Assembly (NCBI GenBank): GCA_943354385.1
Contig: CALRBR010000005.1
Span: forward strand, 1 to 61,352
Source of the DNA: Candidatus Tayloriibacteriota bacterium
GTDB lineage: Bacteria; Patescibacteriota; Minisyncoccia; Phycocordibacterales; PALSA-1337
DNA length: 61,352 nucleotides
Direction: 5' to 3'
The notes under the pieces are model-generated. The model saw nothing but the letters and a program-made list of their open reading frames with translations. It was not told where the DNA came from and ran no database searches. Position 1 is the stretch's first letter, and each line of letters opens with the position of its first letter. This document shows, piece after piece, positions 26,055 to 28,256 of this stretch. A program made the position numbers and the translations under genes.

Positions 26055-28256
26055 TTATTTCCCTACCATCTTCAAAAACTGCTCCTCGGTAACAATCTTC
26101 ACCCCCAAACTTTCCGCTTTCTCAAGCTTACTCCCTGCACTCTCCCCCGCCACCACAAAATCTGTCTCTTTTGAAACCGAACCAGAAACTTCCCCACCGA
26201 GAGCTCTCACCATATCTTTTGCACTATCCCGATCTAGAGTCGTCATACTTCCTGTAAACACAAATGTCTTTCCAACAACTGCTGAGTTTTTGACAGAGAT
26301 AGAAATCGCTCCAGCAATCTTCTTCTCGGCAGAAATCTTTACTTGTTTCAACAAATCACCTACCAGTTTTTTATTATCCGCATCACCGAACCATGATACA
26401 AAAGACTCTGCGACGATATCACCCACGCCATAAATAGACTGAAGCTCCTCTACTTTCGCCTGCATAAGTTTTTCGATAGTACCAAAATGTTTCGCTAGGT
26501 CATGTGCCGTTTCCTCGCCCACCTGTGGTATTGATAGACTAATAATAAACCGAGCCAAAGTCACCTCCCTTGCCTTTTCTATAGCAAACAAAATATTATC
26601 TACCGATTTTTCCGCAAATCTCGGCAGTGCAAGTAAATCACCCTTTTTCAAAGTAAAGACATCGGAAAAATTGGTAATCAGACCATGCTCCAAAAAGGCG
26701 TCGATGATTTTTGGCCCGACTCCATCCATATCAAACGCCTTTTTAGAAACACAATGATACAAGCGGCGTTTTTGTTCACCTTCGCTATTTCTATTGACAC
26801 ATCGCCACGCCACTTGCCCAGGAATCCTTTCAATACCACCATCTCCTCCACACGCCATCACTTTTTTAGGAAACACATACGGCTTTTCACGACCGGTGCG
26901 CATTTCCGTAAGCACCGACACAATATCAGGAATCACATCACCCGCTTTTTGCAAAATCACCGTGTCACCAATACGCACATCAAGGCGTTTTATCTCGTCT
27001 TCATTATGTAAAGTCGCCCGAGACACCGTCGAGCCCGCTACCGAGACCGGCTTCAAATGTGCCACCGGTGTGAGCACTCCGGTACGTCCGATCTGAAGTA
27101 CAATATCCTCTACGACCGTCGTCACCTGCTCGGCCGGGAATTTAAAAGCGATACCAAAACGAGGAGCCTTGCCGGTATAGCCGAGCATCTCTTGCTGTTT
27201 TTTATCACGAACTTTGATCACCGCCCCATCAATCAAATAATCTTCTTTCGGGGCTTTTTTCTGCCAGATTTTCCAATACGAGATCACCTCATCCACCGTC
27301 GCGCACACCTGCGAGTACGGATTGACCCGAAAGCCGAGTTCGCGGAGATATGCAAGCTCCCCATCCTGAGTTTCGGGTACCGACTCACTCGACTGAGCCA
27401 CATCGTATATAAAAGTCGACAACCTGCGCTCTGCCACAATACGCGGATCAAGCTGTCTGATACTTCCTGCCGTCACATTTCTCGGGTTGGCAAACACCGG
27501 CTCGCCTTTTTTCTCACGCTCACTATTGAGCACTTTAAAAACTTTTTTGCTCATATATGCCTCGCCCTCGACAATGATATCCACCGGTCGAGAGAGCGTC
27601 AGTGGCACCGACTCTATCGTCCGGACATTTTCGGTCACATCCTCACCCACCTTTCCGTCGCCACGAGTAGCACCCCGTACAAAAATACCCTTTTGATATT
27701 CCAGCACAATTTTGAGACCATCTATTTTGAGCTCACAGACGTATGTCGGGGCACCCTTGACAGGGGCACTTGACAAAGTGTCAATAGGCTTGTCAAGGTC
27801 TGTGTCAAGTGGATAACTTTTGCCTTTTACGGCTCTACTAAGCCGTTTTGTATAATCAAAATCTGTTATGTCAATAGCTATGTCAATAGCACTGTCAAGC
27901 CCTGTGTCAAGGGTCGTCTCCTGTACGCGGTTTTGCAAAAAACGTTTGACTCGTGTATCAAACACCACGATATCCTCCGGAGAAAAAGCATCATTGAAAG
28001 ACCACTGGGCTACTTTGTGCGGTACCTTTTTAAATGCATCCAGAGGCTTACCGGCCACTCGTTGAGATGGTGAATCCGAACTAATGAGCTCAGGATACTT
28101 GGTCTCGATCTGCATGAGCTCGTTTTTGAGCGAGTCTAGAGCCGCCTCACTAATATCCTGCTTGTCCAAAACATGGTAATTGTACCGGTGTCTTTCAATC
28201 GTTGTTTTGAGCTTGGTAAGACGCTCTTTTACCTGTACTGGAATGACTGGCTTCAT
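26055..28256 (-). CDS. ligA: NAD-dependent DNA ligase with a ~55-aa repeat-derived insertion
   Basis: ELKIDG, TRGDG..GEDVT, NPRN, GRTG.LTP, RATLHN and a C-terminal BRCT domain (GSKL.KA). Confidence 0.97.
27750..27915. repeat. In-frame repeat insertion inside ligA
   Basis: TGTCAA recurs with a 12-bp period (27779, 27791, 27803; 27869, 27881, 27893, 27905). TTGACA at 27757 and 27770. Central ACGGCTCTACTAAGCCGT palindrome. Confidence 0.85.

Follow-up and report, generated by a model that had tools for sequence, protein, structure and literature searches.

A phased TTGACA element within the ligase gene ligA of a Tayloriibacteriota bacterium: a possible protein-binding array translated as a passenger loop

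The DNA analysed here is a stretch of 61,352 nucleotides (the window; contig CALRBR010000005.1) from a Candidatus Tayloriibacteriota bacterium, an uncultured ultra-small organism whose genome, hereafter G000, comprises 661,967 bases in 24 contigs (97% complete, 43% G+C). Its gene for the NAD-dependent DNA ligase, ligA, contains an in-frame insert that carries TTGACA hexamers phased at 12 bp, and a second, untranslated copy of the same element follows tkt, the gene for the C-terminal subunit of transketolase. Comparison of the copies shows, at the level of sequence, that the hexamers are kept by purifying selection on the nucleotides, and that the encoded amino acids are not what is selected. 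The reading that we favour, and to which we give about even chances, is that of an old, low-copy composite cis-element whose hexamers would be phased sites for a putative binding protein and which would have been copied into a permissive loop of the ligase. A more specific version, which we put forward tentatively, is that of a chromosomal docking array for a putative sequence-specific protein, possibly a lineage-restricted GerE protein, with one copy in an essential coding region where it would be selected as DNA and translated as a passenger loop.

The insert in ligA and the copy behind tkt

LigA (26055-28256, minus strand, 733 amino acids) is identified by its open reading frame (ORF), by Pfam domains that make up the full NAD-ligase set (adenylation in two stretches, OB, HhH and BRCT) and by relatives in the PDB at 4e-74. 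The insert occupies 27753-27917 on the minus strand and supplies 55 codons for residues 114-168 (TTLDTG...APVKG), its bounds being set by the LigA of genome G002 and by 27 other LigA loci; it adds 55-57 residues directly before the KxDG motif. Between the QWSF and E.KIDG motifs, G000 and G001, a genome of the same genus, have 91 residues, and G002, likewise of this genus, has 34. Among 30 LigA loci drawn from 40 relatives, 27 have distances of 32-45 residues, that is, no long insert. An earlier reading of the window from its letters alone (the sequence-only reading) had estimated about 55 extra residues at this place, which these distances bear out. It had also named conservation of the segment across distant LigA proteins as the finding that would speak against a repeat insertion, and the comparison of the LigA loci shows that the segment is not conserved in them.

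In the alignment with the LigA of Enterococcus faecalis (4lh6/1tae), residues 9-107 pair with chain residues 11-109 and residues 171-318 with 114-261, and 63 residues stand for a 4-residue turn of 4lh6, right before the strand of the catalytic lysine. The position of the insert as an excursion from a turn is firm. In an AlphaFold2 model based on a 27-sequence alignment, the mean predicted local distance difference test score (pLDDT) is 75.1, and residues 113-167 score <50 and lack secondary structure; they are flanked by a helix (93-113) and a strand (172-178) that are both predicted with confidence. The model thus predicts a disordered loop, in keeping with the loop that the earlier reading had proposed to look for, although the word disordered is a weak statement because just three rows of the alignment contain the insert. 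A Pfam search of the 55 residues gave no family at E<=1. An intein had been thought unlikely for want of its motifs and can be dismissed, as the Hint/splicing domain, with its junction nucleophiles, takes at least about 130 residues. When the peptide was searched against 5.8 billion proteins, a search that reached longer proteins only and therefore gives weak evidence, the one match was the LigA of a strain variant (P0001).

The insert is real and not a misassembly, the other doubt raised at the outset: it is present in contigs from four public runs of four studies, one of which is possibly the source of the window DNA. Two of these runs, including one from the possible source study, are identical to the window, and the other two, from two other studies, carry the strain variant; no RNA run was among those listed for this stretch. 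Frame and length of the insert are kept in three species and in the strain variant; the element is naturally stop-free in two of its three frames.

The element proper runs from ACCCTTGACA to TGTCAAGGGT (27753-27914, minus strand) and ends in a 10-nt perfect terminal inverted repeat (27753-27762 and 27905-27914); the family profile matches over 27748-27918 (E 5e-45). Nine TTGACA/TGTCAA hexamers, the number also given in the sequence-only reading, lie within 27757-27910, out of 31 in the window, at 27757 and 27770 on the plus strand and at 27779, 27791, 27803, 27869, 27881, 27893 and 27905 on the minus strand. In G000 as a whole the hexamer occurs 270 times (0.41 per kb), whereas base composition would lead one to expect about 406; the observed density predicts about 0.06 in 154 bp, so that nine are far beyond chance.

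The seven coding-strand hexamers form two runs (four and three) at exact 12-bp spacing, and the two inverted ones are 13 bp apart. Read along the coding strand, the left arm comes first, with four TTGACA starting at 27905, 27893, 27881 and 27869 (27869-27910, minus strand) and read as (L/I)-D-x-x. It is followed by an A+T-rich stretch of about 22 bases (27847-27868, minus strand), present in all seven copies described below with a sequence that is little conserved, and this leads to the core hairpin ACGGCTTAGTAGAGCCGT (27829-27846), whose palindrome ACGGCTCTACTAAGCCGT had been labelled family B and which belongs to a dispersed GGCT..AGCC family. The box AAAGTTATCCAC (GTGGATAACTTT; 27809-27820, minus strand) abuts the first hexamer of the right arm, where three direct TTGACA follow at 12 bp (27803, 27791 and 27779; 27779-27808, minus strand). 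The two inverted hexamers (TGTCAA on the coding strand; 27757-27775, plus strand) close the element and form an interrupted palindrome with the last two direct ones.

The second copy in G000 (C1:905-1072; profile E 4e-42) is located between the stop codon of tkt and a terminator-like hairpin. BLAST, a scan for hexamer clusters and a profile search of G000 each gave this one copy besides that in ligA (the earlier reading had suggested a search for phased arrays), and there is no other hexamer pair, direct or inverted, anywhere in the 662 kb; weak profile matches to the core only were found at C12:6315 and C21:6698. With its parts in the same order as in ligA, the tkt copy opens with three hexamers and an A+T-rich stretch, continues with the hairpin GGCTCAGTAGGGGCC and with AAGTTATGCAC, and closes with four hexamers followed by two inverted ones. 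Its ends share just TTGACAA, and the 10-nt terminal repeat of the ligA copy consists of a hexamer plus 4 nt. The GC-rich terminator-like hairpin downstream of the tkt element (CCCGCGG...CCGCGGGG type; L002:1109-1131, on contig C1 of G000) recurs at 91-100% identity in the two sister genomes, at 19 places in G001 and G002 together.

In total, seven copies at two loci were collected: ligA and tkt in G000, ligA in G001, tkt in G002, and two tkt copies and one ligA copy in metagenomes. The metagenome copies were retrieved by a pattern made of the box and two right-arm hexamers, a scan that also gave one unrelated promoter-like site. All seven share a plan of 3-5 phased hexamers, an A+T-rich stretch, a GGCT..AGCC hairpin, AAGTTAT(C/G)CAC, 3-4 phased hexamers and two inverted ones, and the four copies found without using the box motif all carry AAGTTAT(C/G)CAC.

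Selection on the hexamers

Pairwise comparison of the columns of the seven copies gives an identity of 900/966 (93%) in the hexamers, 240/462 (52%) in the spacers and 889/1485 (60%) in the core. Between G000 and G001, all seven coding-strand hexamers of ligA stand at identical offsets, and the spacers and the encoded residues differ. The same contrast is visible in the codons, counted as the same codon where the residue is conserved. G000 and G001 share 34/54 residues in the insert, with the same codon in 26/34, against 564/682 residues and 281/551 codons in the rest of ligA. The corresponding figures for G000 and the metagenome copy are 29/50 and 26/29 in the insert, against 579/682 and 304/565 in the rest, and for G001 and the metagenome copy 31/50 and 30/31, against 556/682 and 279/543. 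Aspartate is encoded by GAC at 8/10 sites of the insert vs 7/41 in the rest of the gene.

The strain variant was recovered from two runs (X5 and X8) of two studies. Its nine listed substitutions all fall in 27744-27823, none of them in a hexamer, and within 27744-27877 one 12-bp unit has been lost from the left arm (IDIT) and one gained in the right arm (STID), so that LigA stays at 733 residues. There are no differences in the other roughly 770 bp of the 901-bp stretch compared. Since all the listed differences fall within the element and its junction, the element is a hot spot at which change is concentrated locally and the hexamers stay untouched.

We consider it very improbable that the periodicity is a by-product of a selected (L/I)-D-x-x peptide repeat serving LigA. 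The insert does encode such a repeat, and all three ligA copies conserve its L/I and D positions; nevertheless, the residue after aspartate varies (T, S, I, K or N) while its codon always starts with A, and the untranslated tkt copies keep the same hexamers, so that an explanation at the protein level fails. Synonymous positions are frozen, the strong preference for GAC is confined to the insert, the prediction shows no structure there, and 27/30 related LigA loci manage without a long insert. The proposal of an iteron-like array inside a coding region, advanced in the sequence-only reading as one of two possibilities, is supported by the shared hexamer offsets in G001, the kept synonymous codons and the hexamers of the tkt copies. 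A promoter function, to which the likeness of TTGACA to the sigma70 -35 consensus had pointed, was not borne out: by eye, none of the seven copies presents a consistent -10 element 16-18 bp past the last left-arm or the first right-arm hexamer.

Distribution, history and mobility

The element has a very restricted distribution. In a family scan of 164 genomes, the pattern of core or box plus arm was found in G000, G001 and G002 only, which are three species of one genus, and in G016, whose match was rejected as a copy because it is one promoter-like site. Three phased hexamers were found in 0/200 other genomes sampled from the order, and the right-arm palindrome pattern gave no match in a wider collection of genome contigs, which may omit G000. 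A literature search retrieved no description of the element, nor of in-frame repeats in genes of the Candidate Phyla Radiation.

Within the genus, G002 carries the element at the orthologous tkt site but not in ligA; in G001 it is present in ligA and missing behind tkt, a promoter region following directly after its tkt stop codon. A LigA tree reconstructed with the loop removed (31 rows, 424 columns; bootstrap not fully settled) recovered the genus as a clade (100/100), in which G002, without insert, is sister to (G001,(G000, metagenome copy)) with moderate support (83/85). On the simplest reading of these sequences, the tkt copy would be the older one, because both G002 and G000 have it; the ligA copy would have been gained once, after the split of G002, in the ancestor of G000, G001 and one metagenome strain; and G001 would later have lost its tkt copy by a larger deletion. 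No target-site duplication is discernible, the flanks of the empty ligA site being too diverged and the empty tkt site of G001 being the result of that larger deletion.

The loop has also received something else. In G015, from another genus, the distance from QWSF to E.KIDG is 88 residues and the sequence is unrelated to the insert of G000: it is an in-frame palindromic repeat (L006:1966-2148, minus strand; -73.6 kcal/mol over 183 nt) that matches at two more places in G015 (three matching stretches, 73-90% identity) and is absent from the sister genome G024. Since this unrelated repeat was inserted there independently, the LigA loop is a recurrent landing site.

The core hairpin belongs to a family, A[ACT]GGCT[CT]N3-5[AG][AG]GCC, with 34 strand-matches in G000 vs 2.95 in shuffled sequence. 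Its typical form is ATGGCTCTGTAGAGCCAT, often followed by GGCTAAACAC...GTGTTTAGCC, with GTAG frequent in the loop, and its members in the window are at 27829, 42942 and 61094. The last of these explains a stretch at about 61065-61130 which the sequence-only reading had taken to be similar to the insert: GGATAACTTT/GGGGATAACTTTGG and the palindrome GGCTCAGTGAGCC/ATGGCTCAGTGAGCCAT are indeed present in intergenic DNA at 61067-61110, but as a member of the dispersed hairpin family and not as a copy of the element, for there is no family-profile match at E<=10 and no TTGACA array in this interval. Two further long palindromes, CCCCCGAAAATCGGCAGATTTTCGGGGG and GTCAACGGCTCAGTGGTACACCACTGAGCCGTTGAC, adjoin the hairpin at 61094 (61140-61225). 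Beside ligA, on its upstream side, four ORFs stand in a row (28442-30903, minus strand), at least three with prepilin-type N-termini (GFTLIE or GFSLIE, by eye).

These hairpins bring up the idea of a non-autonomous selfish element, of the type of miniature inverted-repeat transposable elements (MITE), palindrome-associated transposable elements (PATE) or repetitive extragenic palindromic sequences (REP). The hexamers and hairpins would then be sites for a transposase, recombinase or nuclease encoded elsewhere, and the motifs would be kept by repeated copying or gene conversion without being of use to the host. The two unrelated loci are filled or empty in different species of the genus; however, each genome has at most two copies, and the same two loci recur in every genome or contig found, so that the many dispersed copies typical of a MITE are missing. 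The ligA copy has 10-nt perfect terminal inverted repeats, but the arms are direct repeats, unlike simple inverted termini, and no target-site duplication was discerned, with empty-site flanks too diverged to judge. The core does contain a member of a dispersed hairpin family, and two ORFs for Y1 transposases resembling IS200 and REP-associated tyrosine transposases (RAYT) lie 5 kb off (32468-33148, minus strand, 226 amino acids; 33158-33592, minus strand, 144 amino acids). A Pfam match of the shorter covers positions 34-121 of PF01797; in the longer, an HUH-type motif (HFHLL) and YRYSSY are visible by eye. Both may mobilise the dispersed GGCT..AGCC hairpins. G000 also encodes a DUF559 nuclease and a serine recombinase; no element with these ends carries a transposase.

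The differences between strains, all inside the element within the 901-bp stretch, look like a recombination patch. In contrast, the two G000 copies differ in most spacers, which makes recent copying or conversion unlikely, and orthologous copies retain their hexamers although about half of the synonymous sites have changed, which is unexpected for dead selfish DNA. The unrelated repeat in the same loop of G015 also fits a selfish origin, as does the behaviour of Rickettsia palindromic elements (RPE), which act alike as far as they are described in PMC10969869. Taken together, we regard a purely selfish element as unlikely, though as the least unlikely of the alternatives to a protein-binding array. 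The narrower proposal of the sequence-only reading, a repeat inserted in frame and creating new protein sequence, does hold, given the second copy at tkt, the absence from G002 and from 27/30 loci, the open frame and the predicted floppy loop.

Possible readers of the array

Under the reading that we favour, the element would be a composite of two arms of 12-bp-phased TTGACA, an A+T-rich stretch, a REP-like GGCT..AGCC hairpin, a DnaA-box-like AAGTTATCCAC and a terminal palindrome of hexamers. Its older copy would be the one between tkt and its terminator, and a second copy would have entered the loop preceding the adenylation lysine of LigA as an in-frame, stop-free excursion of 55 residues, predicted to be disordered. 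Purifying selection at the nucleotide level would hold the hexamers as phased sites for a putative sequence-specific DNA-binding protein coating both arms, and the terminal inverted pair would take the same putative protein in the opposite orientation. Two things would keep the ligA copy in place: the site has a use, or is at least bound, and the peptide is tolerated by the loop.

Candidates for such a protein were sought in a Pfam scan of 416 of the 543 ORFs of 55-300 amino acids in G000 (the first 150 unfiltered; of the remaining 393, 127 that looked membrane-spanning or exceeded 250 amino acids were dropped, and ORFs >300 amino acids lay outside the scan). The DNA-binding types among these small ORFs are few: two GerE-only proteins, MraZ, YebC, one XRE helix-turn-helix (HTH) protein, and CsoR-like, SWIB and PaaX-like proteins. 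GerE shares its fold class with sigma-70 region 4, by which TTGACA is naturally read. The two GerE/LuxR-only HTH proteins of G000 (C12:16176-16484, minus strand, 103 amino acids; C20:2485-2772, plus strand, 96 amino acids) were both found in G000 and G002 only among 41 genomes searched, which is the presence pattern of the tkt copy. They are leads only, because this distribution, although it fits the tkt copy, does not account for the ligA copy that is intact in G001.

The terminal palindrome deserves separate attention. In the four tkt copies, the last two direct and the two inverted hexamers form a perfect or near-perfect 18-19-bp palindrome with a 2-base centre, in which 75/76 cells pair, 15 pairs are invariant and one C.A mismatch occurs. 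Three spacer pairs show compensated changes (ACGCTA/TAGCGT, GAGCTA/TAGCTC and AGACTA/TAGTCT), which, in a comparison of only four related sequences, is suggestive but short of proof. The folding energies are -28 to -32 kcal/mol for the tkt palindromes and -12 to -19 kcal/mol for the ligA copies (-18.7 in G000), where complementarity of the spacers has been lost, with 7 bases in the right-hand spacer and 3 in the centre, and the hexamers are still present.

Several observations weigh against an array of protein-binding sites. The compensated tkt spacers suggest that the bases pair with each other, be it in RNA, in a cruciform or in single-stranded DNA, and a plain double-stranded operator array leaves them unexplained; this is the main observation of its kind. 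The evidence comes from two independent loci in one genus, and the agreement of the metagenome copies in box and hexamers was built in, because the search pattern contained both. No partition, replication or binder gene lies beside either copy, the neighbours being tkt and a membrane protein gene in one case and ligA and pilin-like genes in the other. G000 has a single tubulin-family gene, presumably ftsZ, and no TubZ was found (ParM and ParA were not searched for); no OmpR-type winged-helix regulator was found in this genome either, and no single or paired hexamer operator precedes any of its genes, including both GerE genes. These GerE genes were not found in G001 (96% complete), though its seven direct ligA hexamers are intact, and the GerE proteins are therefore either not the binder or were missed there. 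Finally, the element is in sense orientation at both loci, which is compatible with an RNA role.

Such a role would consist of UUGACA repeats and a terminal stem-loop in the 3' untranslated region of tkt and in the ligA mRNA, acting either as the target of an RNA-binding protein or as a signal for stability or processing. All seven copies (7/7) are sense-oriented to the gene that they follow or interrupt, but this argument has two independent loci only; the tkt copy should be transcribed, because it is placed between the stop codon and the terminator-like hairpin, and G000 encodes proteins with RRM and KH domains. The three compensated pairs speak for a stem. In contrast, the stem hexamers are conserved in sequence beyond mere pairing, the left arm has no pairing partner, the sole mismatch is C.A with no G.U wobble, and in ligA the stem is weaker and the hexamers are kept regardless. 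No Rfam family was found at E<=1 for either copy with its flanks. An RNA-level element seems to us doubtful, and slightly more so than a selfish one.

The box brings replication into consideration. Its part TTATCCACT agrees at 8/9 positions with TTATCCACA, the DnaA-box consensus; the fuller box is TTATCCAC(T), and TTAT(C/G)CACT, present in all copies, fits TTATCCACA at 7-8 of 9 positions. In G000, TTATCCACA occurs 30 times vs 7.1 expected, an enrichment of about fourfold, and AGTTATCCAC 14 times vs 1.5 expected; two copies of TTATCCACA stand beside dnaA (C2:17466-17957), on a contig other than that of ligA. Further sites of either sequence lie at C2:16825-16852, C7:19275 and C4:29526. The element could in principle be a replication-control site in which the DnaA box is joined to iteron-like low-affinity sites, as a secondary origin or a site of DnaA titration or reactivation of the datA/DARS type, and the A+T-rich stretch adjoining the arrays is in keeping with this. 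Iteron plasmid origins likewise combine direct and inverted repeats of one motif. However, GC skew is negative across the whole window, with no switch at ligA, so that the ligA site is neither origin nor terminus. No initiator gene is near, dnaA having its own TTATCCACA pair on another contig; the box shares bases with the first hexamer and does not keep to the 12-bp phase of the array, and the hexamer unit fits the DnaA box weakly. Replication control is thus improbable, and more so than either a selfish or an RNA-level element.

At several promoter-like sites, among them window 25710-25725, one in G016 and one in a metagenome contig, the box precedes a -35-like TTGACA by 0-5 bp, so that the box of the element may be inherited promoter debris. 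The TTATCCACA/AGTTATCCAC boxes could be a DnaA-box-type promoter element in this lineage. As such boxes also precede -35-like TTGACA and the core hairpin is dispersed, the element looks, from its sequence, as if it had been put together from three things: a unit of promoter type ('box plus -35'), a hairpin resembling REP, and hexamers that were amplified.

Similar hexamer arrays exist elsewhere. The three-hexamer pattern was found at more than 112 loci of viral contigs, mostly as plain tandem repeats with identical spacers. On phage contigs L116 (1300-1650), L122 (1490-1650), L143 and L146, TTGACA is spaced at 12 bp with variable spacers, in both orientations and next to A+T-rich DNA; the neighbours are replication or late-gene modules, with a primase-helicase with VRR-NUC in L116 and a sigma-region-4-like ORF with HNH in L122. 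These four arrays look like iteron-type arrays on the same hexamer, otherwise unrelated to the element.

Split partition centromeres offer the closest parallels in design. The tubC of pBtoxis consists of seven 12-bp direct repeats in two sets, and stbS of R388 of two sets of five 9-bp repeats (bioRxiv 10.1101/2022.04.29.490116); the tubC of prophage c-st is a split centromere of TTGAC iterons spaced by 6 bp (PMC6009700). As far as these sources describe their repeats, the element resembles them in its two blocks, each with 3-5 short direct repeats that follow one another at about one helical turn, in a conserved motif with free spacers, in the TTGAC core of c-st and, for the ligA copy, in the seven 12-bp units in two sets of pBtoxis. 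Unlike them, it is chromosomal, is not upstream of a binder gene, has one copy within a coding region, and would be bound only by analogy; it also has an extra hairpin, a DnaA-box-like motif and a terminal palindrome.

The iterons of the lambda origin lie within gene O. They, too, are phased repeats selected as DNA while being translated; in contrast, the element was inserted in an unrelated essential gene and shows no sign of an origin, whereas the lambda array is in the gene of its own binder and is the origin. Hairpin repeats derived from REP/RAYT and IS200/IS605 systems are also known. The core hairpin comes from a dispersed family, and RAYT-like Y1 ORFs lie 5 kb away, but the hexamer arms have no counterpart in REP, and the complete element does not share this dispersal.

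In its mode of insertion the element is close to the RPE, which are in-frame insertions in proteins (section 4.2 of PMC10969869). In the terms of that description, both are hairpin-forming repeats of about 150 bp, in frame in a housekeeping gene at a site tolerated by the fold, with an intergenic copy too. The element differs from what is described there in having two copies per genome at fixed loci, vs tens for RPE, in being built of phased direct hexamers under selection at the DNA level, and in its host lineage. It thus resembles RPE in the way of insertion and plasmid iteron or centromere arrays in design, and is a proven member of neither.

In the ligA insert, a phased nucleotide motif is under purifying selection within an essential gene, and its letters appear to have two roles at once, that of codons and that of a binding array. 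Most known in-frame repeat insertions come from Rickettsia, and such insertions are commonly viewed as selfish passengers. The 165-bp element also provides a defined bait for a DNA-binding protein, in a lineage whose recognisable regulators are very few and which does not grow on its own. The recurrently tolerated loop before the adenylation lysine of LigA informs both the gain of protein sequence in reduced genomes and the engineering of NAD-dependent ligases. If the element is a docking array, the insert would be a doubly coded segment, and regulatory or architectural DNA sites would be a route to new protein sequence.

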